Positions 14,595-42,407 of a DNA stretch of 64,000 bases are shown piece by piece. Within the stretch, counting starts at the first letter, position 1; the number at the start of each line of letters is the position of its first letter. The stretch spans positions 28,020 to 92,019 of the forward strand of contig CAZNWC010000003.1 in assembly GCA_964577055.1 (NCBI GenBank), given 5' to 3'. The stretch comes from an uncultured Chitinophaga sp. GTDB taxonomy: Bacteria; Bacteroidota; Bacteroidia; UBA7662. The translations under genes and the position numbers were made by a program. The notes beneath the pieces were generated by a model that was not told where the DNA came from, did no database searches, and was given only the letters and a program-made list of their open reading frames with translations.

Positions 14595-14596
14595 GT

Positions 14597-15559
14597 TTAG
14601 TTGCTTTCGATGATGCGGAACAAATCGTCGAGTTTTGGGGTGAGAATGATCTCGGTGCGCCGGTTTTTCGACCGTGCTTCAGCAGTTTTGGCAGGATCGA
14701 GTGGTTGGTGCTTGCCTCTGCCTGCAGCAGTGATGCGTGCCGGATCTATTTTGCCGTTTTCAACCAGTATTTTAACGATGCTGGTGGCGCGCTGCACGCT
14801 CAAATCCCAGTTTACCTGGTCGGAACCCTGGTCATCGGTATGTCCTTCCACCAAAATGCTGATTTCGGGGTTGCTTTCGAGCACCTTGCCCAGCTCTTGA
14901 ATGGCACTTCGGCCGCGCGGATCAACAGCCGAGCTGCCGGTGCGGAACAGCAGCTGCTCCGAAAGCGATACATATACCTTACCGTTCTTTTCTACTACCG
15001 TCAAGCCGCTGTTTTGGAAGCCCAACAAGGCTTTGGCAACGGCATCTTTGAGTTTTTTGACAGCTGCATCCTTGGCATCGAGGGTGGCTTGCAGTTCCTT
15101 TACCTTTTTTTCACGTGCTTCGAGATCGGCTTCGGTAACTTTGAGTCGCTTTTCAATCTCTACCAATTCGGCTTCCTTTTTCTTTACCAGCAGCTCGTTT
15201 TGTTTGAGCTCACGGGCCAAACGTGCATTTTCGGCCATGCTGTTGTTCGAAATGGCTTCGTTGGTTTTTACCAGATCGTCGATGAGCGCGTTGAGCTGCA
15301 CAATGCGGTCCTGGGCCTGTTTGATCTCTTGCGAGGCCTTTTCGGCATCTTCTTGCAGACTTGCTTTTTCACTGCGCAACGATTCCATTTCGGTGTTTAG
15401 GGCATCGTTTTGGCCAGTGAGTTGCTCAATGGTTTTTTGCTGCGACTGCGTTTCTTTTTCGAGTCGGGTACGGTCGGTGAGCACCGCATCGTGTTGTTTT
15501 TGCGATACGCAGGCGCTTAGGCTGCCGGCAGTAAGCAATAGGAAGAAGGCTTTTTTCAT
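14597..15559 (-). CDS. OmpA-family lipoprotein with coiled-coil region
   Basis: Lipoprotein signal MKKAFFLLLTAGSLSAC. A long coiled coil precedes the C-terminal OmpA/MotB peptidoglycan-binding domain (GHTDDQGSDQVNWDLSVQRATSIV...RRTEI). The start was chosen at MKK rather than the longer ORF. Confidence 0.8.
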   Translation of the reverse strand: MKKAFFLLLTAGSLSACVSQKQHDAVLTDRTRLEKETQSQQKTIEQLTGQNDALNTEMESLRSEKASLQEDAEKASQEIKQAQDRIVQLNALIDDLVKTNEAISNNSMAENARLARELKQNELLVKKKEAELVEIEKRLKVTEADLEAREKKVKELQATLDAKDAAVKKLKDAVAKALLGFQNSGLTVVEKNGKVYVSLSEQLLFRTGSSAVDPRGRSAIQELGKVLESNPEISILVEGHTDDQGSDQVNWDLSVQRATSIVKILVENGKIDPARITAAGRGKHQPLDPAKTAEARSKNRRTEIILTPKLDDLFRIIESN

Positions 15560-15578
15560 GCTTGGATCAGGTTTTCGG

Positions 15579-16784
15579 TTAAAAAAAATCGTGGCTGTGC
15601 GGATATCGTTCAAACCAGGCAGTTTTCACCAGCTGGCTGAGCTTGTCACGTAATTCGTCGATGTTTATTTTGGAGGTGGCCGAAATAAACAGGCAATTTC
15701 CGCTTGTTTTGGCCATCCAACTTTGCGCCAGCTTTTCTATGGGCGGATGTTCTTCTAAAAATTCGGGTTCGTCGTGGTGGGCAGCACGGGCCGCTTCCCA
15801 ACGATCGACTTTGTTGAACACGGTGAGCATGGTTTTTTCGCCTGCCCCCAATTCACGCAAGGTTTGCAACACCACTTCCATCTGTTCTTCAAAGTTTGGG
15901 TGCGACAAATCGACCACATGCACCAAAATATCGCTTTCGCGCACTTCGTCGAGGGTGCTTTTGAACGACTCTACCAAGTGGTGGGGCAATTTGCGGATGA
16001 AACCCACCGTGTCGGACAACAAAAACGGCACATGGTTCACCACCACTTTGCGCACCGTTGCGTCGAGGGTAGCAAATAGCTTGTTTTCGGCAAATACTTC
16101 CGATTTGCTGAGCAAGTTCATGAGGGTCGATTTGCCCACATTGGTATAGCCTACCAAGGCTACCCGAATGGCTTTGCCCCGGTTTTTCCGTTGGGTGGCG
16201 TTTTGCCGGTCGATGAGTTCGAGCCGCTCTTTGAGCAAGCTAATGCGGTTGCGGATAATCCGTCGGTCGGTTTCAATTTCTTTTTCACCTGGACCTTTCA
16301 TGCCGATACCGCCTTTTTGTTTGCTCAAGTGCGTCCACATACGGGTCAGGCGGGGCAAGAGGTATTCGTGCTGAGCGAGCTCCACTTGGGTTTTGCTTTG
16401 GGCGGTTTGGGCCCGGCGGGCGAAAATATCGAGGATAAGGGTACTGCGGTCGAGTACCTTCACCGAGGCTTCGAGCGGGTCGGGATTAAATTCACGTTCG
16501 ATATTGCGCAGCTGCGAAGCGCTGAGTTCGTCGTCAAACAGCACCAAATCGATGCTTTCGGCCTTGACGTAGGTAGCGATTTCTTCCAGCTTGCCGGTAC
16601 CCACATAGGTGCGCGGATCGGGTCGGTCGATTTTTTGGGTAAAGCGCTTGCGGGTACTGGCCCCGGCAGTTTCGGCTAAAAAAGCAAGCTCATCGAGGTA
16701 TTCCTGTGCCTTTTCGGCCGGCTGGGCGGAAGTGATGAGGCCTACGAGTACGGCGCTTTCCTGCTGCCTGGAGGTTTCGAACAT
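15579..16784 (-). CDS. hflX: GTPase HflX
   Basis: 401 aa with the HflX N-terminal domain. The G1 motif is GYTNVGKSTLMN, and DTVGF and NKVD motifs are present. Confidence 0.9.
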   Translation of the reverse strand: MFETSRQQESAVLVGLITSAQPAEKAQEYLDELAFLAETAGASTRKRFTQKIDRPDPRTYVGTGKLEEIATYVKAESIDLVLFDDELSASQLRNIEREFNPDPLEASVKVLDRSTLILDIFARRAQTAQSKTQVELAQHEYLLPRLTRMWTHLSKQKGGIGMKGPGEKEIETDRRIIRNRISLLKERLELIDRQNATQRKNRGKAIRVALVGYTNVGKSTLMNLLSKSEVFAENKLFATLDATVRKVVVNHVPFLLSDTVGFIRKLPHHLVESFKSTLDEVRESDILVHVVDLSHPNFEEQMEVVLQTLRELGAGEKTMLTVFNKVDRWEAARAAHHDEPEFLEEHPPIEKLAQSWMAKTSGNCLFISATSKINIDELRDKLSQLVKTAWFERYPHSHDFF

Positions 16785-18313: not shown

Positions 18314-19579
18314 ATGCTTATGCCATGTACACCTGGTTTGCGTATGCTTTGGATTTGTTTGCTTGCCAGCCTCTTTTTTGGGGCTTGTAAAAAGGACAAT
18401 CCTACCCCTGAGCCGAGTACCTTTAAGGATTTGCGCGTTGCCCAAAGTTTTAATTGGAGCTCCATTGCGAATCTCATTATGAATGTTACGTTAAATGAAG
18501 GGCACAATGGCATGGTGCTCGACCTGCGCGACATGGAAGGTCGGCGCATCGACCGGGTGATAATTGCCAACGACCGTGCACGTTTTAATGTACGTTTGGC
18601 TTCCGATTTACGCGATGTGGTGATCCATTGTCCGATGAGCGGTCAAAACTTGCAATTGCCAGCTTTTAACGCATCCGAGTTTTTTAACCTCAATGAAACA
18701 GCGGCAGCCAATTGGTTGGCGGCAGCCGATACTGATGGCGACAGCATTCCCGACCCATGGGACGATTATCCCACCGATCCCCAGCGAGCATTTCTTGTGG
18801 CTGTACCACATGTGGGCGAACACCATGTGCTTTTTGATGAAACATGGCCTTTGATTGGCGATTATGATTTCAACGATTTGGTGTTGGCCAATCGCATGGA
18901 ATTGCAGTACGATGCCAAAAAGCGCTTGTTGCGGGGCAATGTACAATTGCGTTTGCTCGCTTACTCTGCTGAGCAGGAGTTGGGATTGGGCATGGAGTTG
19001 TTCAGTTCGGTGGCAGGCAGTACCTATGCTTATCCTTTTGGTCCGGCAGCTTTGTTCAGTGGCGTAGCAGCCGACGACAGTGTAGACAATTGCGCCATCA
19101 TCAGTTACAATGTGCGCAGTTTGCAACGTGTGGCTTATACGAACGACGGGGTTGGTTTAACCGCACGACCCGACGAGGTGAGCTTCAACTTCGAATGGGC
19201 TGCGGCCATTGGTGGGGATCACGTTTGGCCCAACTTTTTTGTGTTTCCGACAAGCAACCGCAGCCGCGAGCTGCATGCTTTCGGCTATCCGCCAACTATT
19301 GCCGCCGATTTCGCGCCATTTGCAACGGCCGATGATGCGAGCATCCGTTCATGGCGTTGGTTGGGTAGTTTTGCCATACCCAATGCTTTTTACCGTTCTT
19401 TTCGGAATTTGCCCTGGGGTATAGAATTTTTCCATGCGAATTTTAAGATTCCTCGTGCGGGTGTTGATTTGGCCACGGCCTATCCGCTGTTGACCAATTG
19501 GGCCGAATCGGCGGGGGGCACCAATCTGAGCTGGCGCGATTTTCCCAATAACCAGCAGGTAATTCAACTTCCTGAGTAG
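18314..19579 (+). CDS. LruC-domain (DUF4842-like) lipoprotein
   Basis: Lipoprotein signal ...LASLFFGACKKD. An Asp-rich block DTDGDSIPDPWDDYPTDP is followed by FDETWPLIGDYDFNDLVL, a pattern I recall from the LruC domain family. Confidence 0.45.
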   Translation: MLMPCTPGLRMLWICLLASLFFGACKKDNPTPEPSTFKDLRVAQSFNWSSIANLIMNVTLNEGHNGMVLDLRDMEGRRIDRVIIANDRARFNVRLASDLRDVVIHCPMSGQNLQLPAFNASEFFNLNETAAANWLAAADTDGDSIPDPWDDYPTDPQRAFLVAVPHVGEHHVLFDETWPLIGDYDFNDLVLANRMELQYDAKKRLLRGNVQLRLLAYSAEQELGLGMELFSSVAGSTYAYPFGPAALFSGVAADDSVDNCAIISYNVRSLQRVAYTNDGVGLTARPDEVSFNFEWAAAIGGDHVWPNFFVFPTSNRSRELHAFGYPPTIAADFAPFATADDASIRSWRWLGSFAIPNAFYRSFRNLPWGIEFFHANFKIPRAGVDLATAYPLLTNWAESAGGTNLSWRDFPNNQQVIQLPE

Positions 19580-19614: not shown

Positions 19615-21432
19615 TTGAGCATGCGGCAATTTCTTGTTCTTGTATGGCTTTGGTTTTTACTGCCGGGCACCCATGTTGGGGCGCAACCCGGAGTGCACAA
19701 CCAGGCCCTGGCTACTCAATTTTACCAGCAAGCGGAGTACGAAAAGGCAGCTGATTTGTTCAAAGATATCCTCGAGGCCGATGGGCAGAATTACACGGCC
19801 TATCAATATCTATATGCCTGTTACCTCCAATTACAATTGTTCCAGGATGCTGAAAAACTGGCCGCACGTTTTGCCCGAAAAGATGCGGCCCAGGCAGGAT
19901 TTGAGGTAGATCGTGCGTTTGCCTTGCGCAAGCAAGGGGAAGAAAAAAAAGCCCTAGTCTTGTATGAATCGCTTCTGAAGAAACTGGGTCCGAATAGGGG
20001 GCAAATAATGATGCTTGCCAACGCTTTTCGGAACAGGGGCGAAAATGATTTTGCCATCAAAAGTTTGCTGCGCGGCCGACAATTATTGGCAGAACCCTTT
20101 GCTTTTGCGCTTGAGTTGACCGACCTCTACCAGCTCACCGGACAAAAAAGCAAAATGGTGACGGCCTATCTTGATTATTTGGCATTGGCACCACAGCAAT
20201 TGGGTTATGTACAAAACATGTTGCAGTCGCGTTTGGCCGAAGAAGATTATGAGTTGTTGCGCGTGGTATTGCTTGAGGGCATTCAACAGCGTCCCGACGA
20301 TTTGATGCTATCGGAGTTACTGGTGTGGTTTTTTGTGCAGCAACTCGATTTTGAAACGGCTTTTTTACAGGCCAAGGCCTTGGATCAGCGTTTGAATGAA
20401 CAGGGCCGCCGGATGCTTGCGCTTGCCCGCTCAGCAAATGAGAACAAACAATACGAGGCAGCGGCATTGTTTTACAATTACCTGATCGAAATGGGTGAAC
20501 GGCATCCGGCTTATTTAGAAGCACGTTATGAAAGTTTGGAAACCCGGCGTTTGGGTTTGCAGTACAAAGGGGGAACCAAAGCCGATTGGCAAAATTTGGC
20601 ACAAGAGCTCGAGCGGTTTTTGCAAGATTATCCGCAGCAACGACAGCTTTTGTTCGTGAAAAAGACCTATGCCCAGGTATTGGCTTACGAGCTAAAGCGC
20701 TTTGAAGAGGCGGTAGATTTACTTGAAGCGGCTGTCAAAGCAGGAGGAGAGCGCCGCTTGTTGGCAGCGGTTAAACTCGATTTGGGCGATTTGTTTTTGC
20801 TCACGGCCGAATATTGGGAGGCTGCGCTTATATATGGTCAGGTTGAAAAGGAATTCCCCAACGACCCGCTGGGGCAGGAGGCAAAATTCAGAAATGCGCG
20901 CTTGTCGTTTTTCAAGGGTGAATTTGAGTGGTCACAGGCACAGCTCGATGTGCTCAAAGCAAGTACCACGCAAAAAATAGCAAATGATGCCTTGGCCTTG
21001 AGCTTGTTGATTTCAGACAATCTCGACTTAGACACCACCGTTTTGCCCATGCAAGCCTTTGCGGCTGCAGAATTATTGCTTTTCCGACAAGAGCATGCGG
21101 CTGCTGTTGCGGCGATGGAGCAAATGTTGGTTGATTACAAAGGGCATGCTTTGAGTGACGAACTTTATTTCAGGCTTGCCCGTGCCGAACAAGTGCTGGG
21201 CAATCCACAAAAAGCGGCATCGTGGTACCAGCAATTGGTACAAGAACATGGCACAGATATTTTGGCCGACGATGCGCTATTTGCATGGGCGGTGCTTACC
21301 GAGGAGCGTTTGGTACAACCCGAACAAGCTGCCAAATTATACGAGCAGCTCTTGCTGCAATATCCCGACAGTACTTTTACCTTTGAGGCACGCCGTAGAT
21401 TCCGCAAACTGCGGGGCGACAACATCAATTGA
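19615..21432 (+). CDS. Tetratricopeptide-repeat protein, secreted
   Basis: 605 aa with a signal peptide. TPR-like helical repeats run throughout (AxxxYxxAxxxF patterns). Confidence 0.7.
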   Translation: MSMRQFLVLVWLWFLLPGTHVGAQPGVHNQALATQFYQQAEYEKAADLFKDILEADGQNYTAYQYLYACYLQLQLFQDAEKLAARFARKDAAQAGFEVDRAFALRKQGEEKKALVLYESLLKKLGPNRGQIMMLANAFRNRGENDFAIKSLLRGRQLLAEPFAFALELTDLYQLTGQKSKMVTAYLDYLALAPQQLGYVQNMLQSRLAEEDYELLRVVLLEGIQQRPDDLMLSELLVWFFVQQLDFETAFLQAKALDQRLNEQGRRMLALARSANENKQYEAAALFYNYLIEMGERHPAYLEARYESLETRRLGLQYKGGTKADWQNLAQELERFLQDYPQQRQLLFVKKTYAQVLAYELKRFEEAVDLLEAAVKAGGERRLLAAVKLDLGDLFLLTAEYWEAALIYGQVEKEFPNDPLGQEAKFRNARLSFFKGEFEWSQAQLDVLKASTTQKIANDALALSLLISDNLDLDTTVLPMQAFAAAELLLFRQEHAAAVAAMEQMLVDYKGHALSDELYFRLARAEQVLGNPQKAASWYQQLVQEHGTDILADDALFAWAVLTEERLVQPEQAAKLYEQLLLQYPDSTFTFEARRRFRKLRGDNIN

Positions 21433-22694: not shown

Positions 22695-22931
22695 GCCACA
22701 AGGTCAATGAAAATCTGTAAAAATCAATGTGGGCAAGTACTTGCATAAGCTCTTTTTTGTCGCTATGTTGCACCCCTGTTTGTTAAAAATTTGTGAAATT
22801 CCGGTAAATGTGTTCTCTGAATTGGATGCAGCCAATGTCAGGAATACGTCAAAAGGTCGACACACGTATTGACAAACGGGAAATTGGATTTAACTTAAAT
22901 TTTCAAATAGACCTAAAGTAAATTTCAGACT

Positions 22932-25900
22932 ATGCAGAGAAAGTTCTACCTGAGTTTATTCCTGCTGTTGCTGAGCACGTTAGCTGTCTTTGGTCAGGCT
23001 GGTACCGGTACCCTACAAGGTAAGGTAGTAGACGAACTGAAGCCAAAAGAGGGTATCCCCTTCGCAAACGTGGTCATCGAGCGGGATGGTGTGGTCAAAG
23101 GCGGTACTACCACCGACATCGATGGTAAGTATAAGTTTGGCGCCTTGCCCCCCGGAAAGTACGACCTGAAGGTTTCGTACGTAGGTTACAATCCAGCCGT
23201 GCTCAAAGGCGTGCTGGTGAGTGCCGACCGAAGCAATTTCGTTGACATCAAAATGAGCTCGGGTGTTGACCTGAGCGTAATTGATGTTGTGGATTATGAG
23301 GTTCCCCTCATTTCCAAAGACGAAACTTCTACCGGTGGTACTGTAACCCGTGAAGAAATCGCGGCCCTACCCACGCGCGACGTGAACTCCATTGCGGCTA
23401 CCACCGGTGGTGTTTTCCAGCAAGATGAAGGCGGCGCCCTAAACATTCGCGGTTCACGTTCCGATGCAACTGAATACTTCATCGACGGTATTCGTGTTCG
23501 CGGTTCAACCAACTTGCCGAATGCTGCCATCGAGCAAACAACCGTAATCACAGGTGGTATTCCCGCCCAGTACGGCGATGCTACTGGTGGTATCATCAAC
23601 ATCACCACACGCGGACCATCAGGTCAGTTCTTCGGCGGTGCTGAAGTATTGTCGTCGGCATTTGTGTTGGAGCCTTATGGTTACAACCTCTTTGCCTTGA
23701 ACTTCTCAGGTCCATTGATGAAGCGTGGCGACAAGTCGATTTTGGGTTACTTCATTTCGGGTGAATTTGAAACCCAAAAAGACCCGAATCCTTCGGCTGT
23801 TGGCGTATGGCAATTGAAAGACGATGTATATGACTTTGTAAGCCAAAACCCTTTCCGTCCATCCATTTTCGGTGCTGGTGTAAACCGTAACTCTGAATTT
23901 GTAAATGCCGACGATATGGAGCTGGTACGTGTGCGTCCGAATGCTAATCGTGACCGTTTTTCGATCGCAGGTAAAGTGGACTTCCAACCGAACAACAACT
24001 TTAGCATTACCATTGGTGGTAACTACGATTACGTTGACGGACGTTCTTATGCCCGCTCGCTTTCTTTGTTCAGCCGCGACAATATGGGCTTCTTCAACAA
24101 CAACACCATCCGTGCTTACGGCCGTATCAAGCAGAACTTTGCGTCTGCCGAAGGCGAAAACAACAGTGGTGGCACCATCAAGAACGCCTATTATACCTTG
24201 CAGTTCGACTACACCAAATCGACCAGCTCACAAGATGGTGGTCCTGATCTCGCCCGCAACGCCTTTAACTATGGCCACGTAGGTACTTTCGATTACGATC
24301 TGGTGCCGATTTACAGTGAAGAAGATTACTTCGATGCACAATCAAACGTGCTGTACCGCATGAATGTATTGCAAGGTTTCTCTGAGCAGAACCTGCGCTT
24401 TACGCCCAGCGCGATTGATCCAAGTTTGTCGGTATGGGGAACCAGTTTCTTCAAAGTACTCAACACCACTGAATTCAACAGCATTTCTGATGTTCGTCAA
24501 AACGGTGGTTTGGCCAACGGTTTGCGTCCTGGTTCTGCTTATGGTATTTGGTTCGATCCAGGTCGTCAGTTTGGTGGCTTTAACTTCACCGACAACGACC
24601 AGTATCGCTTGACCGGATTCTTCTCTGCCGACATTGGTGGCCATGCCCTGAAGTTTGGTTTTGAATACGATCAGCGTGTTGACCGTGGATACACCATGAA
24701 CCCATTTGCTGGTGGCATTGGTTTGTGGGGCTTGGCCCGTGGTTTGGCCAATCGCCACTTGTCCGAATTGGATGTGAACAATCCGATTGTGACCCGCGAT
24801 GCCAACGGTTTCTTGACCGATTTGGACACTGTTCGCTTCAACCGTTTGTACAACGCTGGCAACCAGTCGTCTTTCGACCGCAATCTTCGTCGTTCATTGG
24901 GATATGCTGACAATGACCTGCGCTTTATCAACATCGACGCCATGAATCCTGCCGACTTGCAGTTGAGCTTCTTCTCGGCCGAAGAATTGTTGAACGAGGG
25001 TAACTCTTATGTAAGCTACTTTGGATATGACCACTTGGGCAACAAACTGGGCAGCAACCCAGGTGCGCTCGACTTCTTCACTGACCGTGAGAACCGTCCG
25101 GTTCCTGCATTCCAGCCCATTTACATGGCCGGCTTCATTGAAGATAAGTTCTCTTTCGACGACTTGGTTTTCCGTGTAGGTGTGCGTGTTGACCGTTTTG
25201 ATGCCAACCAACCGGTATTGAGAGACCGCTTCCTTTTGTATTCGGCCCGTACGGTTGCAGAAGTTGATGGTGCTTTGAATACTGCAAATGGTGGTATCCA
25301 CCCCAGTGTAGTACCAACCGATGCGGTGGTTTACGTAAACGACATCACCCAGCCTAACCCCGTGATTTTGGGTTACCGTTCAGGTGTTCAGTGGTTTACT
25401 GCCAATGGAACTGAAATTCGTAACGCTTCTGGTATCGCAGCTGCTTCGGCAACTGGTGCTGTAACGCCATTCCTGGTAGATCCTACCCAGAACGAAGTAC
25501 GTGCCGATGCCTTCACCGACTATACCCCGCAAATCAACATCATGCCACGTGTGGCCTTCTCATTCCCTATTTCGGATGAGGCCCAGTTCTTTGCGCACTA
25601 TGACGTATTGACACAGCGTCCGAGCGGCTTCCTCCGCTTCGATCCTCGTCAGTTCTACTTCCTGCAGCAAGTGGGTGGTACCTTGAACAATCCTGATTTG
25701 AAGCCTGAGCGTACCATCGACTATCAGTTGGGCTTTAAGCAGCGTTTGAACAAGACCTCGGCTTTGACCATCAGTGCCTTCTACCGTGAATTGCGCAACA
25801 TGATTCAGATCATCAACGTGCCATTTGCGTATCCGCTCGATTACCGTACCTATGGTAACATCGACTTCGGTACTGTAAAAGGTTTGACCTTGGCTTACGA

Positions 25901-26606
25901 CCTCCGTCGTACAGGTAATGTGCGTATCAACGCCAGCTATACTTTGCAGTTTGCTGATGGTACTGGTTCTGCTCCTCAGCAGGCAGCCCAAATCATCCAG
26001 GCTGGTATCGACAACTTGCGTACCCCAATTCCATTGGACTTCGACGCACGTCACCGCTTGGTAGGTACTTTGGACTTCCGCTTTGGTGAAGGCAAAAACT
26101 ACAATGGTCCTCGCATCAATGGTTTTGGCTTCATGGAAGGCATTGGATTCAACCTCGTAGCCAACGCGATTTCTGGAACACCGTTCTCACGTCAAACTGT
26201 ACCAACACCCGATGGTGCTGTGGTAGGGGGTTTGCAAGGCCGTACTACCTTGAAAGGTGGTATCAACGGTTCACGTTTGCCTTGGCAGTTCCGAATGAAC
26301 TTGCGTGTTGACAAGGACGTAACTGTGAAGTTGGGCAAAGACAAAAACGACAAGCCACGTGAAGCAACCGTGAACGTGTATGTACAGATCCTCAACCTCT
26401 TCGACGCCCGTAACGTGATCAATGTGTATCAATTTACAGGTGATCCAAGCGATGATGGTTATCTCACCAGCGACCTGGGTCGTCAGCAGTTGCAAAGTGT
26501 ACTCGATCAGCAGGCTTTCTTCGATCTGTACACTGCTTCGATGATGAACCCTGGCAACTTTAGTTTGCCCAGAAGAACACGTTTGGGTATCAGATTCAAT
26601 TTCTAA
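22932..26606 (+). CDS. TonB-dependent-receptor-like outer membrane protein with N-terminal carboxypeptidase-regulatory-like domain
   Basis: 1224 aa with a signal peptide. The CarbopepD_reg-like segment is GKVVDE...ANVVIERDG...KYKFGALPPGKYDLKVSYVGY. A plug-like region (LNIRGSRS) follows, then a long beta-barrel ending ...LGIRFNF with a terminal aromatic. Confidence 0.75.
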   Translation: MQRKFYLSLFLLLLSTLAVFGQAGTGTLQGKVVDELKPKEGIPFANVVIERDGVVKGGTTTDIDGKYKFGALPPGKYDLKVSYVGYNPAVLKGVLVSADRSNFVDIKMSSGVDLSVIDVVDYEVPLISKDETSTGGTVTREEIAALPTRDVNSIAATTGGVFQQDEGGALNIRGSRSDATEYFIDGIRVRGSTNLPNAAIEQTTVITGGIPAQYGDATGGIINITTRGPSGQFFGGAEVLSSAFVLEPYGYNLFALNFSGPLMKRGDKSILGYFISGEFETQKDPNPSAVGVWQLKDDVYDFVSQNPFRPSIFGAGVNRNSEFVNADDMELVRVRPNANRDRFSIAGKVDFQPNNNFSITIGGNYDYVDGRSYARSLSLFSRDNMGFFNNNTIRAYGRIKQNFASAEGENNSGGTIKNAYYTLQFDYTKSTSSQDGGPDLARNAFNYGHVGTFDYDLVPIYSEEDYFDAQSNVLYRMNVLQGFSEQNLRFTPSAIDPSLSVWGTSFFKVLNTTEFNSISDVRQNGGLANGLRPGSAYGIWFDPGRQFGGFNFTDNDQYRLTGFFSADIGGHALKFGFEYDQRVDRGYTMNPFAGGIGLWGLARGLANRHLSELDVNNPIVTRDANGFLTDLDTVRFNRLYNAGNQSSFDRNLRRSLGYADNDLRFINIDAMNPADLQLSFFSAEELLNEGNSYVSYFGYDHLGNKLGSNPGALDFFTDRENRPVPAFQPIYMAGFIEDKFSFDDLVFRVGVRVDRFDANQPVLRDRFLLYSARTVAEVDGALNTANGGIHPSVVPTDAVVYVNDITQPNPVILGYRSGVQWFTANGTEIRNASGIAAASATGAVTPFLVDPTQNEVRADAFTDYTPQINIMPRVAFSFPISDEAQFFAHYDVLTQRPSGFLRFDPRQFYFLQQVGGTLNNPDLKPERTIDYQLGFKQRLNKTSALTISAFYRELRNMIQIINVPFAYPLDYRTYGNIDFGTVKGLTLAYDLRRTGNVRINASYTLQFADGTGSAPQQAAQIIQAGIDNLRTPIPLDFDARHRLVGTLDFRFGEGKNYNGPRINGFGFMEGIGFNLVANAISGTPFSRQTVPTPDGAVVGGLQGRTTLKGGINGSRLPWQFRMNLRVDKDVTVKLGKDKNDKPREATVNVYVQILNLFDARNVINVYQFTGDPSDDGYLTSDLGRQQLQSVLDQQAFFDLYTASMMNPGNFSLPRRTRLGIRFNF

Positions 26607-26615
26607 GAGACAAAA

Positions 26616-29600
26616 ATGAAAGGGATGATAATGAATCGTAAAATTTGGACCTTGGTGATGGCTATCACCATGGGAGGAATTTTGGGAGCAGAGGCGCGCG
26701 AAGACCTGTCGGTGCAGCCCCGCACCCAGCAGAACAATCGCCAGTTCGTAGCCCGTGTGGCGTCGAACTGCACGCCTCCCAGCGCCAGGATTAACCTCGA
26801 CATCAACAATGTGCGTGCCATGATTTTGCGTGGTAACGACATGTGGTGGGACCAAGGAGGTAGCGGCAATGCGCGCTATGAAATACCTAAGCTGGATGAC
26901 CCAACTTTGCCCAAAAAACACGCTTTGTTTGCGGGTTCTATTTGGGTGGGTGGTATTGATGCCGTAGGTACCTTAAAGGTTGCCGCTCAAACTTACCGTC
27001 AAACAAGCACTTTGGGTGTAGGATGGTGGGCTGGTCCGCTCACGCTTGACTCAGCAACCATTACACGTGACGAGTGTCGTCGTTGGGATACCCACTGGAA
27101 GGTGGAGCGCCGTCAAATTCAGGAGCACATTGCAGCGATTGCAGCGGGTGATGCTTCTTATGTAATTCCAGACGGTATTCGCAATTGGCCTTGGCAGGGT
27201 GATGTTACCCTTGGTCAAGATCCGAACATGGCACCATTTGTAGACGTGGATGCTGATGGCGTTTACAACCCTGGCAATGGTGATTATCCGGATATTTTTG
27301 GTGACCAGTCTATCTGGTTCCAAACCAACGACAAGGGCAATACGCCTGGTTCAGGTGCCACACCCATTGGTATGGAAATCCAGACCCAAGCCTTTGCTTA
27401 CCAGTCGAACGACGAGTTGAACAATATGACGTTCTATACGAACAAGATTATCAACCGCTCGACCATTCGTTTGGACTCGTGCTTTATGGCACAGTGGGTT
27501 GACCCCGATCTTGGTAACTATACCGACGACTTCGTTGGTTGTGATGTTCCCCGTGGTTTGGGTATTGCCTACAATGGTGACGACGACGATGAAGGTATTC
27601 AAGGTTATGGCGTAAACCCTCCTTCGGTAGGTGTTGACTTCTTTGAAGGTCCTTTCTCTGATCCGAACGATGGTATTGACAACGACCGTGATGGTCAGGT
27701 GGACGAAATTGCAGCTTCTGGTTGCGATCCTACCCCACGTACTGAACGTATCATCATGGCGAAGTTCCTTTATTTCAATAACGATGGTTCGCCCATAGGT
27801 AACCCAACTACTGCCGAGCATGCTTACAACTACATGATTGGTCGTTGGAAAGACAATACGCAAATGGTATTTGGTGGTAATGGCTATCCCAACTCTGCTG
27901 GTGCCACTACTTTGCCTGCAACCATCATGTTCCCCGGTGCATCCGACAACCAGTTTGGTTGGGGCTTGGGTGGTTCTACTTCGAACCCCATTGCACCACC
28001 TTTCGATTGGAGTGAATTCAATCCTGGTCCTGGTGCTCAGCCTAACGTGCCTGCCGACCGTCGATTCGTGCAATCTGCTGGTCCTTTCACCTTGTTACCC
28101 GGTGCTGTAAACTACATCACCATTGGTGTAGTATGGGCGCGTGCTTCATCAGGTGGTGCTCGTGGTTCACTGAACCTCTTGCTGCGTGCCGACTCAAAAG
28201 CACAAGCTTTGTTCGACAACTGCTTTAAGACCATCGATGGTCCTGATGCGCCAGATGTGAGCATCACGGAATTGGATCAAGAGTTGATTTTGTCGTTCAG
28301 CTACAAGCCAACCAGCAACAACTACCGTTTGGGCTATCGAGAAGAAGATCCGGTGATCAAGTCGTTGAATGATGACTTGCCTCCAGGAACCAATTTGTTT
28401 GATCCTTACTACCGTTTTGAAGGATTCAAAGTGTACCAGTTGTCTGCTTCGAATGTATCTACAGGTGAATTGGACGATCCCAACCGTGCACGTTTGCTCT
28501 ATCAGGGCGACATCAAAAACAATGTTGACCGCATTATCAACTGGGATTTTGATTTGGATCTTGAGCAATCGGTACCTTCATTGGCTGTTGACGGTGCTAA
28601 CGATGGTGTACAAATGAGTTTGCGTATCACCCGTGACCTCTTCGCAGAAGGAAGTGACCGTTTGACCAACTTCAAGCGTTACTATTACCTGGTATTGGCT
28701 TATGGTTACAACAACTATGCAACTTTTGACCCTGCTTCTGATACAGGTCAGCAGCGTCCTTACCTTGCTGGTCGTAACAATGTGCAGGTGTATACTGGTA
28801 TTCCGCACAAGTGGGAGCCTACCTTCAACGGCTTGATTTTGAATTCTTCTTATGGTGATGGTCCCGTGATCACACAATTAGAAGGCCGTGGTAATGGTGG
28901 CAACTTCCTTGAGCTTTCGGAAGCAACTGTGGCTGAGATTTTGGCCAATGGTCAGAGCAATCGTCCTACCTATGTAGGGGGTGCTGGTCCGGTTGACATC
29001 AAAGTAATTGATCCTACGCTTGTGCCTCGTGCCAAAATGACTTTGGCTATGTACCGTGGCAATCCTGGTGCTGGTAATTTGTCGGTGAACAACGATGGAC
29101 GTTGGTACATTGTATACAACAGCGATACCATTTTCTCTGATACGACTGTTGCAGTAGGTTCTGAGCAAATTTTGGGTTACTACGAAAACAATGTGATTTT
29201 CAGAAGCCTCGGTTTGAGTGCAACCATTCAAAATGCCCGTTCTCCGGGCGAGGAGCCTGAAACCGGCAATGGTATTATTGGCAGCACCTCCTTCTATGAA
29301 GATCGTTCGAACGAATGGTTGACCTTTATTCCGGATGATGAGCGTTTGGAAGTATTCGACTGGGTGAAGGCAGGTCCTCCCGGTGGTGATCCTTTGATTG
29401 CCAGTGGTGACCCACAGCGTTTCTTCGAGAACATTGTGCCCGGTGAATTACCAAATACCAATATCCAAGGGGGAACGTGGACAGCGATGCGATATGCTGC
29501 GCCTACACCTTTCCATCCTGGTGTGTTTAACTCTCAGGGTGACAACCAACCACTGAACATTCCTTTCCGTGAAGCTTCGCGCCTGGATAGCTTGCGTAGT

Positions 29601-30599
29601 GTAGATGTGGTATTTACCGCTGACAAGAGCAAGTGGACCAAAGTGGTGGTATTAGAGATGTGTGAAACACCTGCGCAAGCACAGGGTGGTCGCCGTCGTA
29701 ACCATTTGCGTGCTGCTCCTTCTGTTGATAAAAACGGCAATGTTGATCCGAACGAACCCCGTGAAGGTTTTGGCTGGTTCCCTGGTTATGCCATCAATGT
29801 GGAAACTGGTCAGCGCTTGAACATGGCCTTTGGTGAAGACAGTCGAGCCTCTATTTCAAATGGTGGTGACATGATTTGGAATCCGAGCGATAGCATTTTT
29901 GGTGATCAGTTGGCTGGTCAGCCACAAATCATCATGGGTGGTAAGCACTTTGTATATGTGATGGCATCACCTTATGATGAAGGTGAGCGTCCTTACCGCA
30001 TTCTCACCCGTACACTGGGTGGTGGTACGCCTAACCCAACTAATTTGCCGGTGAACGTTATCCGCGATTTCTATCGTGAAATCATGTGGACCACGGTGCC
30101 TTTGCGTCGTACAGGTCGTCAATTGCTGGCGAACGACTACAATGTGAAGATCCGCGTGAACAATCCTTATCGCAACTTTGCTTTGCCAGGTGTTACTGTA
30201 ACCAATACGGGTAATCCATTGTATGAAATTGATGCTACAGGTTTGGCGCCAACCAAGAATGATTTGGCGACTGCTCAAAGTGCACTCGATTTGATTCGTG
30301 TGGTTCCGAATCCTTACTACGCCGCATCGCGCTATGAAACCAGCCAGATCGACAACCGTGTGAAGATCACAAACTTGCCACAGCGTTGCGAAATCAGGAT
30401 TTACACCACTGGTGGTACCCTGATCCGTACGTTGCGCAAGGATGATCCTACCACATTTGTAGATTGGGATTTGTTGAACCAGGAGCGTATTCCTATTGCC
30501 AGTGGAGCTTATATCATCCATGTGAACGCACCCGGTATTGGTGAAAAAGTAGTGAAGTGGTTCGGTGTAACCCGTCCGATTGACCTCGATACCTTCTAA
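26616..30599 (+). CDS. Large secreted protein with T9SS C-terminal-domain-like tail; candidate PorU-type protein (uncertain)
   Basis: 1327 aa with a signal peptide and Asp-rich Ca-binding-like blocks (DVDADGVYNPGNGDYPD, DNDRDGQVDE). The C-terminal ~90 aa (VVPNPYY...CEIRIYTTGGTLIRTL...ASGAYIIHVNAPGIGEKVVKWFGV) resemble a T9SS CTD beta-sandwich but extend past the usual end. A FadL/PorV-like gene lies immediately downstream. I could not confirm a C25 peptidase motif by eye. Confidence 0.5.
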   Translation: MKGMIMNRKIWTLVMAITMGGILGAEAREDLSVQPRTQQNNRQFVARVASNCTPPSARINLDINNVRAMILRGNDMWWDQGGSGNARYEIPKLDDPTLPKKHALFAGSIWVGGIDAVGTLKVAAQTYRQTSTLGVGWWAGPLTLDSATITRDECRRWDTHWKVERRQIQEHIAAIAAGDASYVIPDGIRNWPWQGDVTLGQDPNMAPFVDVDADGVYNPGNGDYPDIFGDQSIWFQTNDKGNTPGSGATPIGMEIQTQAFAYQSNDELNNMTFYTNKIINRSTIRLDSCFMAQWVDPDLGNYTDDFVGCDVPRGLGIAYNGDDDDEGIQGYGVNPPSVGVDFFEGPFSDPNDGIDNDRDGQVDEIAASGCDPTPRTERIIMAKFLYFNNDGSPIGNPTTAEHAYNYMIGRWKDNTQMVFGGNGYPNSAGATTLPATIMFPGASDNQFGWGLGGSTSNPIAPPFDWSEFNPGPGAQPNVPADRRFVQSAGPFTLLPGAVNYITIGVVWARASSGGARGSLNLLLRADSKAQALFDNCFKTIDGPDAPDVSITELDQELILSFSYKPTSNNYRLGYREEDPVIKSLNDDLPPGTNLFDPYYRFEGFKVYQLSASNVSTGELDDPNRARLLYQGDIKNNVDRIINWDFDLDLEQSVPSLAVDGANDGVQMSLRITRDLFAEGSDRLTNFKRYYYLVLAYGYNNYATFDPASDTGQQRPYLAGRNNVQVYTGIPHKWEPTFNGLILNSSYGDGPVITQLEGRGNGGNFLELSEATVAEILANGQSNRPTYVGGAGPVDIKVIDPTLVPRAKMTLAMYRGNPGAGNLSVNNDGRWYIVYNSDTIFSDTTVAVGSEQILGYYENNVIFRSLGLSATIQNARSPGEEPETGNGIIGSTSFYEDRSNEWLTFIPDDERLEVFDWVKAGPPGGDPLIASGDPQRFFENIVPGELPNTNIQGGTWTAMRYAAPTPFHPGVFNSQGDNQPLNIPFREASRLDSLRSVDVVFTADKSKWTKVVVLEMCETPAQAQGGRRRNHLRAAPSVDKNGNVDPNEPREGFGWFPGYAINVETGQRLNMAFGEDSRASISNGGDMIWNPSDSIFGDQLAGQPQIIMGGKHFVYVMASPYDEGERPYRILTRTLGGGTPNPTNLPVNVIRDFYREIMWTTVPLRRTGRQLLANDYNVKIRVNNPYRNFALPGVTVTNTGNPLYEIDATGLAPTKNDLATAQSALDLIRVVPNPYYAASRYETSQIDNRVKITNLPQRCEIRIYTTGGTLIRTLRKDDPTTFVDWDLLNQERIPIASGAYIIHVNAPGIGEKVVKWFGVTRPIDLDTF

Positions 30600-30618
30600 T
30601 TTTTTAACGAGAAAGAGC

Positions 30619-31671
30619 ATGAAATTAGATATGATAAAGAAAAGCAGCCTGATGATTGTAGCACTGGCAACCGTTGTTGCCAGTGCCTACGCAGGCAATC
30701 CTGATCGTCGTGGTCAGGCCGGTGCACAGGAGTTATTGGTAGTTCCATGGGCCCGCAGTGCCGGCTGGATCGGTGTAAATACTTCTACCGTTCGCGGTAT
30801 TGAAGCCGAGCGCATGAATGTAGCCGGATTGGCTTTCACCAAACGTACGGAGTTGAATTTCTCTCGTACTACCTGGTTGAGTGGCACCGACATTTACATG
30901 AATGCTTTTGGTTTAGCGACCAAAATCAATGAGTCGAGCTCGCTTGGTTTTTCGGTAATGTCGATTGACATGGGTTCGGTGGAAATCACTACCACAGAAA
31001 ATCCCGATGGTGGATTGGGTACTTATAAGCCCTCCTTTGCAAACATCGGTATTTCGTATGCCAAGTCGTTTTCTGACCGCATTCACGGTGGTGCTACTGT
31101 ACGTATCATCAGCCAGAGTATTTCTGACGTAAGTGCACAAGGTGTAGCTTTCGACGCAGGTATTCAGTATGTAACGGGTCCGAAAGATGCCATCAAATTT
31201 GGTATTGCCTTGCGCAACGTAGGTACACCTATGCAATTTGGTGGCGACGGTTTGTCGGCTCGTGGTACCATGCAGGGCAGCACAGTTGCCCTCACCCTCA
31301 ACCAGCGTTCGGCACAATTTGAATTGCCTTCGTTGATGAACATTGGTGCTTCATATGACTTGTACCCAATGGGTGTTGACGATTACAAATTGACCCTTGC
31401 TGGTAACTTCACTTCGAATTCATTTACCAACGACCAGTATGGTTTAGGCGCAGAATTTAGCTGGAAGAATATGTTCGCCGCTCGTGCAGGTTATCAGTTT
31501 GAAGATGGTTTTAGCACTGAAGCCAGCCGTCAGAATGTATATACCGGTTTAAACTTCGGTTTTTCGGTAGATGCACCTGTTGGCAAGAGCATCTTTGGTT
31601 TTGACTATGCTTATCGTGGAACAAATCCTTTTGGAGGAACCCATTTGATTGGTATTCGCTACAACCTTTGA
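30619..31671 (+). CDS. FadL-fold outer membrane beta-barrel, PorV/PorQ-like T9SS shuttle-family protein
   Basis: About 350 aa with signal peptide MKLDMIKKSSLMIVALATVVASAYA. The FadL/PorV-type N-terminal motif is AGAQELLVVPWARSAGWIGV...ERMNVAGLAF. The barrel ends ...GIRYNL. It is encoded 19 nt after the CTD-bearing gene. Confidence 0.5.
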   Translation: MKLDMIKKSSLMIVALATVVASAYAGNPDRRGQAGAQELLVVPWARSAGWIGVNTSTVRGIEAERMNVAGLAFTKRTELNFSRTTWLSGTDIYMNAFGLATKINESSSLGFSVMSIDMGSVEITTTENPDGGLGTYKPSFANIGISYAKSFSDRIHGGATVRIISQSISDVSAQGVAFDAGIQYVTGPKDAIKFGIALRNVGTPMQFGGDGLSARGTMQGSTVALTLNQRSAQFELPSLMNIGASYDLYPMGVDDYKLTLAGNFTSNSFTNDQYGLGAEFSWKNMFAARAGYQFEDGFSTEASRQNVYTGLNFGFSVDAPVGKSIFGFDYAYRGTNPFGGTHLIGIRYNL

Positions 31672-31692
31672 TTTTTTTGTAACTTTGTAAGG

Positions 31693-31729
31693 AAACGCTC
31701 CCCCTTCGGGTGGGGCGTTTCTGTTTTTT
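31693..31729 (+). terminator. Rho-independent terminator after PorV-like gene
   Basis: A 12-bp stem AAACGCTCCCCC/GGTGGGGCGTTT with loop TTCG is followed by CTGTTTTTT. Confidence 0.6.
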
Positions 31730-35656: not shown

Positions 35657-37135
35657 TCATCCTTCCGCCTCATGCTTTGTGGCAAGCCCCATGTGCCCTG
35701 CCCCTTCCGGTGCGTGGTAGATGTCAATGGCCGTGATGACGGCGAGGAATGACCAATACAAAAGGGCGGTTTTGTCGATGTCGAGGTAATCGTTCAAAAA
35801 GCCATGGGTTAGATAGGTGACCAATCCCAAGAGCACTATCAAAATGCTTTGTTTGAGGAATTGATCACGCAGGGTGTAGTACAAACGCATGGCTTTGGAA
35901 ATGGCAAAACCGATGATGGTTAAAAAAATGACAAAGCCAGGAATGCCCATCTCCACCAGCGGGTTCATGTATTCGCTGTGTATGCCACCAACATCGGCGG
36001 CATTGGTGCTGATAATGGTTTTTTCGTTGGGTTTTTGAAATGGGGCGTATTGGAACATATAGGTGCCCGGACCCCAGCCTAAAAAGGGTCGTTCTTCTAA
36101 CATGCGAAAGCCACTGGCCCAACGGTTCAGTCGTTCGAGATTGGAGGCATCGGTACGCACGTTTGAAATAGATTTCACGTGCTTGCTCAGGTCATCGGCC
36201 GAATCGGTTTTGTTTTCCATCAACCGCATGGTGATTTGCGTTTGGAAGGTGAAAAACAAGGCCACCACTACACCCAAGGCACCCAAGAGTCCCCAGAACG
36301 GAATTTTCAATCGTAGCACCAGGTAAAAGGCACCGGCAGCAATCACCCCCAACCAGGCTGCACGCGTATAGCTGAAGATGAGTCCAGCGGTAAAAATGAC
36401 CAGCAACAGCAGCATCACAAAGCTCATGAGCGGCCGCTGGGTGAAAAGTGGTAGCCTGAATAGGTATACCACAATCATGGGGATAAAAAAGGCGACCATC
36501 GCTCCATATATGCCGTGGTTCATCACGAATGGTTCACTGGCCCAATACGAGGCTTGTTTGGTAAAGCCGTAGGTGCTGTGGTTGTAAATACTCCAGATAA
36601 TTACCGCCGTGAGGGGCACCATGTAGAGCCACAAAAAAAGGTGTATGTTTTGTCTTTTGCGAAACAGCTGCAAGCCAATGAAATAGAAGCAGGTGATGAA
36701 CCACAGGTTCGACAAAAAGAACTTGAACGAAGTAAGGGGCATGCTGCTTGAAATGCTGGTAAATACCATCCACAGCAAATAGAAGACAATCGACAAGCTA
36801 ATTGGGTGGTACAAGGCCCGTGTGTCGTAACGCCCCTCGATGAGCAGCTTGAGGTAAAATAGCACCATCATGCCAAAGAGCAGGGGTTCGGTGGGCAAGG
36901 TAAAACTGATGCCCAATTGGCCTACATCGACCAATACGCTCAAGGGTGTGATGAAGGTGATGAACAGCAGCGAACGGTCGATGCTGAAGGTGACGAAATA
37001 CACGAACCACAGCGCCATGGGTACAAAAAGGAACCAATATTGCTCGCGCGTGAGCATAAAGCTGCTGAAGGATACAAACAGCACCCCTATGGCGTAAAAC
37101 CAACTTTTGCTCAGCGATGATGTGGCCAGCCGCAT
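35657..37135 (-). CDS. O-antigen ligase (Wzy)-family polytopic membrane protein
   Basis: 492 aa with ~12 TM segments. The Wzy_C-like motif is YTRAAWLGVIAAGAFYL, and a large periplasmic loop is present. Confidence 0.55.
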   Translation of the reverse strand: MRLATSSLSKSWFYAIGVLFVSFSSFMLTREQYWFLFVPMALWFVYFVTFSIDRSLLFITFITPLSVLVDVGQLGISFTLPTEPLLFGMMVLFYLKLLIEGRYDTRALYHPISLSIVFYLLWMVFTSISSSMPLTSFKFFLSNLWFITCFYFIGLQLFRKRQNIHLFLWLYMVPLTAVIIWSIYNHSTYGFTKQASYWASEPFVMNHGIYGAMVAFFIPMIVVYLFRLPLFTQRPLMSFVMLLLLVIFTAGLIFSYTRAAWLGVIAAGAFYLVLRLKIPFWGLLGALGVVVALFFTFQTQITMRLMENKTDSADDLSKHVKSISNVRTDASNLERLNRWASGFRMLEERPFLGWGPGTYMFQYAPFQKPNEKTIISTNAADVGGIHSEYMNPLVEMGIPGFVIFLTIIGFAISKAMRLYYTLRDQFLKQSILIVLLGLVTYLTHGFLNDYLDIDKTALLYWSFLAVITAIDIYHAPEGAGHMGLATKHEAEG

Positions 37136-37138
37136 GCC

Positions 37139-38257
37139 TTACTGTTTGCGTGCAAGGAGGTATTTGTAGTTCTCTACCGCAATGAGGATAAGCAGGGTGA
37201 ACAAAAAGGCGCCAAAAGTGCTCAACAAAACGATGAGTGAACGCAATGGATAGGTTTTCTTTTCGGCAACTTTGGCTGAATTCACCACAAATTTTACGGG
37301 CAGCACTTCGTCAACATCCACTTTGGCGCGGTCGTAACGCTGACGGAGCTTTACCAATTCTTCGTTTTCTTTTTCAAGTTGTTCTTTTACGCTGTTGTAT
37401 GCACCCCCAAAACGGCCCAAAAGGTCGAGTTGTTTTTGCAGTTCACGCGCGGTAGCTTCCGATCCGCTGAGGCGCGATTCGTTGTTCACAATGCCCGTAT
37501 CGGTATCGGCAATGCCTTTGTTCCGCAATACCTGCAGCTTGGCTTTGGCATCCGAAATGCCTGCCACTGCTTGTACGTATACATCGGTAATGTGGTCGAT
37601 TTGCATGTCGTAATCGAAAATGCCCATGTTGCGGAACTGGTTGAGCGAGTCGTTGAGGCGGTTCACCAGATCGCGCTTGGCGAGGTACTGCGTTTCCACA
37701 ATTTGCAAGGCCTTGGTAGCCTGTTCCTGTTGGATTTTATTTTTGGTTTCGTCGAGCAGGGCAGCTATGTCGTTGGCGATGTTAGCGGCAATTTGAGGAT
37801 CGGTGTCGAGCACTTCAATTTCTACCGATGAATATTCGGTACGGCGGAAGCGGATATTGTCGCTGAATTTTTTGGCCAGTTGGGTGTAGCGGAATTTGCT
37901 GTTGGGTTTGATGTCGTAATGGTTCATCAAATCGTATTTGTCGATGATGAACTGCCTGATTTCGTCGGAATACAAGATTTGTATCAGCTGTTCGGCCTGT
38001 TCTTCTTCGCCAAACTCAAGTGGGTCGCTGCGGTCGTAAGCATTTTCGTTGAGAAGGGCTTTGGACACCGAATTGGTGGTGGCGGGATAAAACACCACTG
38101 TTGATTTAAAGCGAGGTTTGATGAAAGTGGGGCCTGAAAAGATGACCGAGGCCACGGCTGCGAGCATGGTTACCACCAGGATAGGGGTTTTCCATTTTAC
38201 CAGAAATTCAACCACCGAAAGGGAATCGAAACTGTACGCCTGTTTCTCAGCTTGCAT
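37139..38257 (-). CDS. Polysaccharide chain-length determinant (Wzz/GumC-like) protein
   Basis: The start was chosen at MQAEKQ because the ORF track extension upstream is a GC-rich artefact. It has an N-terminal TM, a long coiled-coil periplasmic region, and a C-terminal TM. Confidence 0.5.
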   Translation of the reverse strand: MQAEKQAYSFDSLSVVEFLVKWKTPILVVTMLAAVASVIFSGPTFIKPRFKSTVVFYPATTNSVSKALLNENAYDRSDPLEFGEEEQAEQLIQILYSDEIRQFIIDKYDLMNHYDIKPNSKFRYTQLAKKFSDNIRFRRTEYSSVEIEVLDTDPQIAANIANDIAALLDETKNKIQQEQATKALQIVETQYLAKRDLVNRLNDSLNQFRNMGIFDYDMQIDHITDVYVQAVAGISDAKAKLQVLRNKGIADTDTGIVNNESRLSGSEATARELQKQLDLLGRFGGAYNSVKEQLEKENEELVKLRQRYDRAKVDVDEVLPVKFVVNSAKVAEKKTYPLRSLIVLLSTFGAFLFTLLILIAVENYKYLLARKQ

Positions 38258-38292
38258 AGGTATTTTTTGAATTGGGTCAAAAATAAGGATTC

Positions 38293-39726: not shown

Positions 39727-39744
39727 GGGGTAAAGATAAGAGAT

Positions 39745-39950: not shown

Positions 39951-40088
39951 AGCTGGCGGGGGTGGCGACTTCGAAAATGTTCGCATCGGTGGGGCTGTAC
40001 CGTGCTTGGAAACGATTTGGCATTGGAAAAATGGACGGACGGCAGTATTTGCGGTGAAGGGAATCAATTATTTGCCAATATTTGCGGC

Positions 40089-42381: not shown

Positions 42382-42407
42382 AATAGCTGCTATTTGAAAG
42401 CAAAAAG

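Follow-up and report, generated by a model that had tools for sequence, protein, structure and literature searches.

The outer membranes of Bacteroidota are built on machines that combine a barrel with a surface protein, among them SusCD, the attachment complex of the T9SS (type IX secretion system) and the recently solved beta-barrel assembly machinery (BAM) with its canopy. In two pairs of the T9SS, PorZ on PorQ and PorU on PorV, the C-terminal domain (CTD) of the surface protein is kept and bound to the barrel (PMC10202324). The same has been suggested for type B cargo and PorP/SprF barrels, with SprB anchored by SprF (PMC10202324), and BamG, the FadL-type barrel of the Bacteroidota BAM, has a non-transport role as the platform on which a surface protein docks (PMC12611786, PMC12578637). 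The present analysis concerns a group of three genes in a 64,000-nt stretch of DNA from an uncultured Chitinophaga sp. (contig CAZNWC010000003.1, positions 28,020 to 92,019, forward strand), referred to below as the window. The three products are P1, a 1,224-amino-acid (aa) outer-membrane protein of the TonB-dependent-transporter type; P2, a secreted, mostly beta surface protein of 1,327 aa without a Pfam domain; and P3, a 350-aa outer-membrane barrel of the PorV/PorQ family. An earlier interpretation of the same DNA, here called the sequence-only reading, had offered a choice between a porU-porV pair preceded by an unusual barrel and a distinct three-component outer-membrane module. The trio is a co-transcribed, vertically inherited outer-membrane module of the Bacteroidota, separate from porU-porV, and no description of it was found in the literature; the second of the two alternatives is backed by synteny, by a family-specific tail on P2 and by the absence of any name or paper for the module.

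All three genes lie on the + strand, P1 at 22932-26606, P2 at 26616-30599 and P3 at 30619-31671, with intergenic gaps of 9 nt between P1 and P2 and 19 nt between P2 and P3, exactly the packed, co-directional layout described in the sequence-only reading. The longest open reading frame (ORF) for P3 opens with a TTG at 30580 and would yield 363 aa; the ATG at 30619 gives the 350-aa product and the 19-nt gap. The sole terminator of the trio sits after P3. This intrinsic terminator (31691-31729, + strand), which lies 20 bases past the P3 stop, consists of the hairpin GGAAACGCUCCCCC-UUC-GGGUGGGGCGUUUC and a U-run (UGUUUUUU), the stem being a G+C-rich 14 bp with one bulge. Owing to the bulge, a simple consensus terminator scan missed it; folding against shuffled sequences detected it, with a free energy of -21.9 kcal/mol and a z-score of -4.54, none of the 200 shuffles folding equally well. 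The earlier description of this terminator as a strong one is thus borne out.

P2 homologues were located in one GTDB genome per species, and more than 593 species were represented among the matches listed; synteny was compared in the best 80 of these more than 593 species-level loci, using tblastn and phmmer on all ORFs. P1, P2 and P3 occur in the same order and on the same strand in 73 of the 80 loci, with greA and a HIT-family gene following the trio in about 65 of these 73, as they also do in the window. The trio loci carry the labels Flavobacteriales, Cryomorphaceae, Crocinitomicaceae, Schleiferiaceae, Weeksellaceae, Bacteroidales, Lentimicrobiaceae, Chitinophagales and others, and identity to the P2 of the window ranges from about 79% down to 38% across the loci. 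Contig look-ups led to the same trio whether a P3 or a P1 homologue was the starting point. Each of the three proteins has thousands of full-length homologues, and since the arrangement recurs in 73 of the 80 loci the trio is not a chance association. All relatives retrieved are metagenome-derived, and among the matches listed the P2-carrying records are all labelled Bacteroidota save for a few evidently mislabelled metagenome-assembled genomes (MAGs). Trio MAG records L002 (VHAX01000003.1), L005, L034 and L069 are among those titled Sphingomonadales, Chitinophaga pinensis, Chryseobacterium gleum or Bifidobacterium; they look like mislabelled bins, as their gene content is that of the other Bacteroidota loci. 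P1 homologues are named "TonB-dependent receptor" and those of P3 "PorV/PorQ family protein" (NCBI), while P2 homologues carry only the names "hypothetical protein" or "T9SS C-terminal target domain-containing protein". The P2 family is very large: clustered at 50% identity, it comprises 7240 clusters when matches up to E 1e-3 are counted and 2332 when E <= 1e-30 is required.

In the remaining seven loci (L017, L020, L021, L040, L052, L060 and L066) P2 is a lone paralogue in an unrelated context; a further such paralogue, without adjacent P1 or P3, occurs at 6001-9801 of locus L085. The neighbours of lone P2 genes are often small T9SS cargo genes, such as those for a Kelch protein with a Por_Secre_tail domain or a CTD protein of 222 or 585 aa, and other lone paralogues adjoin a LytTR two-component system. 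One MAG holds both the trio (L013) and a lone P2 paralogue (L017).

In the downstream pair the gene for a PorV-family barrel comes after that for a large CTD protein, an order that mimics porU-porV, and P3 has weak similarity to both PorV and PorQ, so that the locus might be read as an ordinary T9SS sortase and its shuttle lying downstream of an unrelated TonB-dependent receptor. The scores of P3 place it elsewhere. It reached 137.9 bits against the PorV/PorQ family model NF033709 (cut-off 90), with residues 34-350 aligned to positions 2-326 of a model of 326, in line with the FadL/PorV-like barrel that had been recognized downstream in the sequence-only reading. Against the PorV equivalog NF033710 it scored 64.6 bits versus a cut-off of 250, and over residues 22-210 only; against the PorQ equivalog NF033711 it scored 77.5 bits versus 220. 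Pfam PorV gave 26.9 versus a cut-off of 27, and PorP_SprF (PF11751) gave no match at E <= 0.01, so that none of the cut-offs for PorV, PorQ or PorP/SprF was reached; a few P3 homologues do carry a precomputed PF11751 match. The only sequence relative of P3 in the PDB was PorV of F. johnsoniae (E 1.5e-6), BamG not being matched. By sequence, P3 is best described as a PorV/PorQ-family barrel that is the orthologue of neither PorV nor PorQ.

The evidence from P2 points in the same direction. Full-length P2 had no match to PorU (NF033707) at E <= 0.01, and its CTD alone scored 10.8 bits versus a cut-off of 420. No Peptidase_C25 match was found in Pfam, and the only invariant cysteines are C52 and C154, both in the N-terminal region, which agrees with the earlier remark that no gingipain/C25 dyad is visible. 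Scanned as three pieces, P2 had no Pfam domain at E <= 10, and neither sequence nor profile searches found relatives in the PDB. The sequence-only reading had looked to a structure prediction for P2, and an AlphaFold2 model of residues 28-1200, built from 105 sequences, was confident (predicted local distance difference test, pLDDT, 87.4) and almost entirely beta; it did not resemble a gingipain. Its sole recognizable fold, from weak Foldseek matches to the PDB, is a galactose-mutarotase-like supersandwich. With the upstream barrel held in place in 73 of the 80 loci rather than varying among relatives, and with no confident match to either PorU or PorV, we regard an ordinary porU-porV pair as scarcely credible; it is highly probable that the trio is a distinct conserved module.

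The AlphaFold2 model stops at residue 1200, so the CTD of P2 and its tail lie outside the modelled region and were compared by sequence. The C-terminal beta-sandwich (residues 1209-1318; 30240-30569, + strand) resembles a T9SS CTD. The motifs PNP, GxY and KxxK are all present, with an insertion after PNP. The best match of the last ~100 residues is to the PorZ-model CTD (33.1 bits, E 2e-8), and BLASTP to the PorZ CTD of the window itself gave E 0.004. The CTD models proper gave less: the isolated C-terminus scored 17.1 bits (E 0.0039) against the type A model TIGR04183, under its cut-off of 23, PF18962 (type A CTD) had no match at E <= 10, and a scan of the C-terminal 147 residues at E <= 10 reported five families, none of them the type B model TIGR04131, so that neither of the CTD models suggested by the sequence-only reading identified P2. 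Because typical type A CTDs are readily recognized in the same genome, the CTD of P2 is atypical.

Beyond this domain, P2 carries a family-specific C-terminal extension, TRPIDLDTF-COOH (30570-30596, + strand), recognized from motif counts in homologues. The PorZ CTD of the window ends in ...GEETVAAKIVFIR and P2 in ...GEKVVKWFGVTRPIDLDTF; relative to that PorZ CTD, which lacks such a tail, P2 runs 9 residues past the last canonical strand. The claim that the tail continues beyond the end of a canonical type A CTD is therefore correct as to the extension itself, its length being 9 residues in this comparison rather than the ~12 first estimated. The motif K[WF][FY]G..RP.DL..[FY]$ is found in 116 of 120 close P2 homologues, and a C-terminal Phe or Tyr in 117 of these 120; of the 139 full-length representatives taken at 50% identity, 117 likewise end in Phe or Tyr. 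The segment ahead of the CTD (ALDLIRVVPNPYY) is also conserved and is not linker-like. A role of the tail as an outer-membrane-protein beta-signal was considered and rejected, as its hydrophobic residues fall at positions -1, -4 and -6 and do not alternate at -1, -3, -5 and -7. Lone P2 paralogues, found elsewhere in the same genomes and with no P1 or P3 gene beside them, keep the tail; this is expected if the tail addresses them to the single P3. Several loci, Bacteroidales-labelled and others, have a second P2 after P3: a second full-length paralogue comes directly after the trio in L031, L033, L044, L063 and L074 (at ~12300-16440 in these five), in L068 and in L081 (13236-17435), and those of L031, L033 and L074 end in ...KWFGALSE, without the RPxDLxxF tail.

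A T9SS is evident in the window itself. PorZ is encoded at 59342-61600 (+), scores 601.7 bits against NF052228 (cut-off 260) and has a type A-like CTD of its own; it is followed by recO (61624-62331), and no PorQ gene adjoins it. Two tandem type A cargo genes lie at 49274-53179 (+) and 53180-55807 (+), the first stopping at 53179 and the second starting at 53180; they encode a 1301-aa subtilisin-like protein and an 875-aa metzincin-like protein with TIGR04183 CTDs of 39 and 45.5 bits. The organism therefore has a T9SS. From the CTD-like domain, the PorV-family neighbour and the presence of PorZ and type A cargo in the window, we infer that P2 is secreted as a T9SS cargo. It would cross the inner membrane by the Sec pathway, as suggested by a predicted type I signal peptide over approximately residues 1-27 (26616-26696, + strand; cut at ...GGILGA/EA, no lipobox Cys), a segment that is disordered in the AlphaFold2 model, and would then cross the outer membrane by the T9SS via its CTD-like domain. 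The CTD would not be cleaved; together with the nine-residue tail ending in Phe or Tyr it would stay docked on P3, which would thus hold P2 to the membrane permanently; PorQ plays this part for PorZ, PorV for PorU and SprF/PorP-type barrels for type B cargo. Retention is suggested because this pattern has been reported for PorZ/PorQ and PorU/PorV and put forward for PorP/SprF with type B cargo (PMC10202324), and by analogy with these pairs we hold the docking of a retained P2 CTD on P3 to be somewhat probable.

P2 could alternatively be an ordinary T9SS cargo enzyme, for instance a glycan-active one, whose CTD is cleaved, with P3 acting as a second general shuttle and the tail having no anchoring role. 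The PNP, GxY and KxxK motifs of its CTD would suit such a cargo, and the supersandwich fold is common in glycoside hydrolases and lyases. Against this, the tail and the pre-CTD segment are conserved and not linker-like, the dedicated adjoining barrel parallels the known retained-CTD pairs, and P2 has no catalytic domain: the (alpha/alpha)6 catalytic domain of GH15, GH65, GH94 and GH116 is absent, and P2 does not belong with these families. A cleaved cargo enzyme accordingly seems quite improbable to us. A mutarotase-like catalytic site was also considered in P2 and rejected, since there is no invariant His within the N-terminal 700 residues. The model supports no claim of an enzymatic function.

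The body of P2 can also be read as chiefly structural, a coat or adhesin (S-layer-like, or serving gliding or attachment) held by P3, with P1 a co-regulated but mechanistically independent transporter. The protein is large and beta-rich, shows no catalytic signature and contains Asp-rich motifs of the DxDxDG type that look calcium-binding; lone P2 paralogues occur elsewhere beside other T9SS cargo, and the anchoring of an adhesin by its cognate barrel is known from SprB/SprF (PMC10202324). The N-terminal 560 residues, however, which include Asp-rich motifs of the DGIDNDRDG type, show very strong conservation and dozens of polar positions that never vary, unlike the fast-evolving sequences of coats and adhesins, and the linkage of P1 in 73 of the 80 loci argues for a shared function. 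On balance a chiefly structural role for P2 is considered unlikely.

P1 was described in the sequence-only reading as a very large protein with a carboxypeptidase D-like domain, a plug and a barrel, and both domain searches and modelling agree with that description. A signal peptide precedes the CarboxypepD_reg N-terminal extension, and the CarboxypepD_reg, Plug and TonB_dep_Rec_b-barrel domains scored 58.3, 40.1 and 46.4 bits, respectively, all exceeding the Pfam cut-offs. The CarboxypepD_reg-like domain comprises residues 27-108 (23010-23255, + strand; PF13620, E 1e-15), and its profile also matches the N-terminal extension of SusC and N-domain chains of TonB-dependent receptors in the PDB. 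Between this extension and the plug, a strand VIDVVDY followed by a PLI motif (residues 116-127; 23277-23312, + strand) corresponds to the family consensus E-V-E-V-V-E-Y-x-x-P-L-I in the column counts of an 86-sequence alignment. This placement is what we take to be the site of the TonB box in SusC-type transporters, and the strand resembles such a box in sequence; it is regarded as a putative TonB box. The plug spans residues 137-221 by Pfam (23340-23594, + strand; PF07715, E 5.9e-10), and its profile match to the plugs of Cir and PirA reaches approximately residue 260, the PDB matches being the plugs of Cir, Fiu, PirA and PfeA. The barrel domain is the PF00593 match of 46.4 bits, and the C-terminal residue is Phe.

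An AlphaFold2 model of P1 residues 25-1224, based on 86 sequences, had a pLDDT of 86.8 and a predicted template modelling score (pTM) of 0.83. Foldseek against the PDB returned Cir, FptA, PqqU, PfeA, XusA and BtuB, with E-values down to 3.7e-25; for Cir, FptA, PqqU and BtuB the template modelling (TM) score on the target was 0.65-0.79, with E from about 1e-25 to 1e-21. Domain matches (PF07715, PF00593), model and Foldseek hits agree on a plug within a 22-strand barrel, the defining architecture of a TonB-dependent transporter. Because P1 matches this standard plug-in-barrel fold, its ~450 extra residues are loop or insert material, and the barrel indeed has very long extra loops. In NCBIfam P1 reached no equivalog and no SusC/RagA model was among its matches; no Oar-type family was among its Pfam matches at E <= 0.01, its domain architecture being similar to the Oar type.

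Because P1 is kept with P2 and P3 and has the features of an energized importer, the anchored P2 is proposed as a capture element for it. P2 would sit beside or over P1 and capture a ligand, possibly a glycan, for which the supersandwich is only a hint, and P1 would import the captured ligand, presumably inward with energy from TonB. The trio would thereby function in the manner of SusCD, capturing and importing, with the T9SS in place of lipoprotein export bringing the partner to the surface. The absence of a SusD-like partner, pointed out in the sequence-only reading, was confirmed at the locus: no SusD-like ORF is present, P2 has neither a Pfam match at E <= 10 nor a lipobox, and the gene upstream of P1 is a divergent nitronate monooxygenase gene. 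The role of the trio as an analogue of SusCD or XusAB is put forward tentatively, while the best explanation as a whole, a T9SS-exported P2 docked on P3 beside P1 for capture and import, comes in our judgement a little short of an even chance.

Several points weigh against this interpretation. Adjacency of the three genes alone is not proof of a physical complex. P2 has no recognizable ligand-binding or catalytic site, and its fold is shared by proteins that have nothing to do with sugars, among them amine oxidases and, in its periplasmic domain, YidC. The score of 17.1 versus 23 for TIGR04183 means that dependence of P2 on the T9SS is itself something we infer. The constant greA/HIT housekeeping neighbourhood, without regulator, riboswitch or catabolic enzyme, is unusual for a nutrient-uptake locus: no regulator or catabolic gene was seen near the trio, and an Rfam scan at E <= 1 found no riboswitch or other RNA upstream of P1. 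Such a housekeeping-like position fits a role in envelope maintenance equally well.

The same position, together with near-single-copy vertical inheritance, is what would be expected of an export or envelope-biogenesis machine, in which P1 would act outward as an Oar-like channel, releasing or assembling P2 or a glycolipid for upkeep of the outer membrane or surface layer. Myxococcus Oar is reportedly an outward-acting TonB-dependent-type channel for PopC, and the CarboxypepD_reg domain, plug and oversized barrel of P1 form an Oar-type architecture; P1 has no sequence match to an Oar-specific model, and the CTD-like domain of P2 already gives it a T9SS route. P3 would in this explanation be a FadL-like lateral-gate conduit or an assembly partner. 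The structural reuse of the FadL-type BamG in the Bacteroidota BAM lends this some weight (PMC12611786, PMC12578637), against which P3 is by sequence a member of the PorV/PorQ family and not BamG or FadL, and the trio proteins are absent from the reported BAM subunits. Such an export or biogenesis machine is not considered likely, and capture and import by P1, with P2 held on P3, is preferred.

Upstream of P1, a 237-nt intergenic region (22695-22931, + strand) on the promoter side is flanked by the divergent nitronate monooxygenase gene. Further upstream, on the same strand as the trio, are genes for a 421-aa DUF4842-containing protein (18314-19579, +) and a 605-aa tetratricopeptide repeat (TPR) protein (19615-21432, +), the synteny of the latter being limited to the closest relatives, L001 and L022. 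Envelope-related housekeeping genes elsewhere in the window include secA (308-3634, +), a lolC/E-type permease gene (10336-11568, +) and an OmpA-family gene (14597-15613, -). A cluster of the surface-polysaccharide type occupies 35657-46126, mostly on the - strand, with an O-antigen-ligase-like Wzy_C protein (35657-37135), two large ORFs without a family match that overlap one another by ~500 nt (37139-38788 and 38293-40176) and glycosyltransferases at 43293-44615 and 44444-46126. ORFs of 390-440 aa at 7274-8602, 41206-42381 and 62438-63709, all on the + strand, had no NCBIfam match at the thresholds used.

The P2 family contains thousands of sequences and has no Pfam model, solved structure or name, and the intact trio recurs in different orders, frequently in small genomes of marine or freshwater origin. 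The trio would give the Bacteroidota one more barrel-based machine, drawing on elements of two of the known ones: a TonB-dependent transporter, and a CTD protein with its PorV/PorQ-type anchor. If the retained CTD does dock on P3, the C-terminal tail would provide a sequence rule for barrel-bound T9SS substrates and hint at a code of cognate-barrel specificity within the PorV/PorQ family, and the transporter would be one whose ligand could matter for aquatic carbon or micronutrient turnover. A more far-reaching reading is that of a third route by which the T9SS sorts and anchors proteins, one coupled to active transport, in which a retained CTD marked by RPxDLxx[F/Y]-COOH and a PorV/PorQ-family clade of its own would hold 1,300-aa proteins on a TonB-dependent transporter. 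We are doubtful of this reading; if true, the trio would be a T9SS-assembled analogue of SusCD and among the most widely conserved unstudied outer-membrane machines of environmental Bacteroidota.

Compared with the described systems, of none of which it is a member, the trio would share with BamG the reuse of a FadL-superfamily barrel as a platform on which a surface protein docks. Identification of P3 as BamG, and of P1 and P2 as BAM subunits, was rejected, as the trio proteins are not among the reported subunits (PMC12611786, PMC12578637). With SusCD and XusAB it shares a transporter that has a CarboxypepD_reg extension and a TonB box, putative in P1, encoded beside the gene for a surface partner, and the structural matches of P1 include XusA. 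P1 does not itself belong to the SusC family, since it has no SusC/RagA match and its best structural matches are the classical transporters Cir, FptA and PqqU. P2 differs from SusD in that it is no lipoprotein, is not SusD-like, is five to six times the size of SusD, bears a T9SS-type CTD and has a barrel of its own. Type B cargo with cognate PorP/SprF-type barrels, sprB-sprF for example, resembles P2-P3 in having the cargo gene directly ahead of its own barrel gene, the barrel of those systems being needed for secretion or anchoring of the cargo, and in the existence of cargo paralogues; P2, however, has no type B CTD match, P3 has no PorP/SprF match, and those systems have no linked TonB-dependent transporter. 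The likeness to PorZ-PorQ and PorU-PorV lies in a large surface CTD protein combined with a 14-strand barrel of the PorV/PorQ family, the CTD of P2 being nearest that of PorZ. P2 differs from PorU and PorZ in lacking a C25 domain or a PorZ body, with a supersandwich in place of propellers, and the window has a separate gene for a real PorZ; P3 falls under the equivalog cut-offs of both PorV and PorQ; and the trio as a whole is set apart by the RPxDLxx[F/Y] tail of P2 and by a TonB-dependent transporter gene as its invariant third member. The order of cargo and then cognate barrel in P2-P3 is thus analogous, not orthologous, to that of porU-porV, porZ/porQ and sprB-sprF. Its building blocks are those of known superfamilies; undescribed are the way in which they are combined, the clade of P3 and the tail on the CTD.

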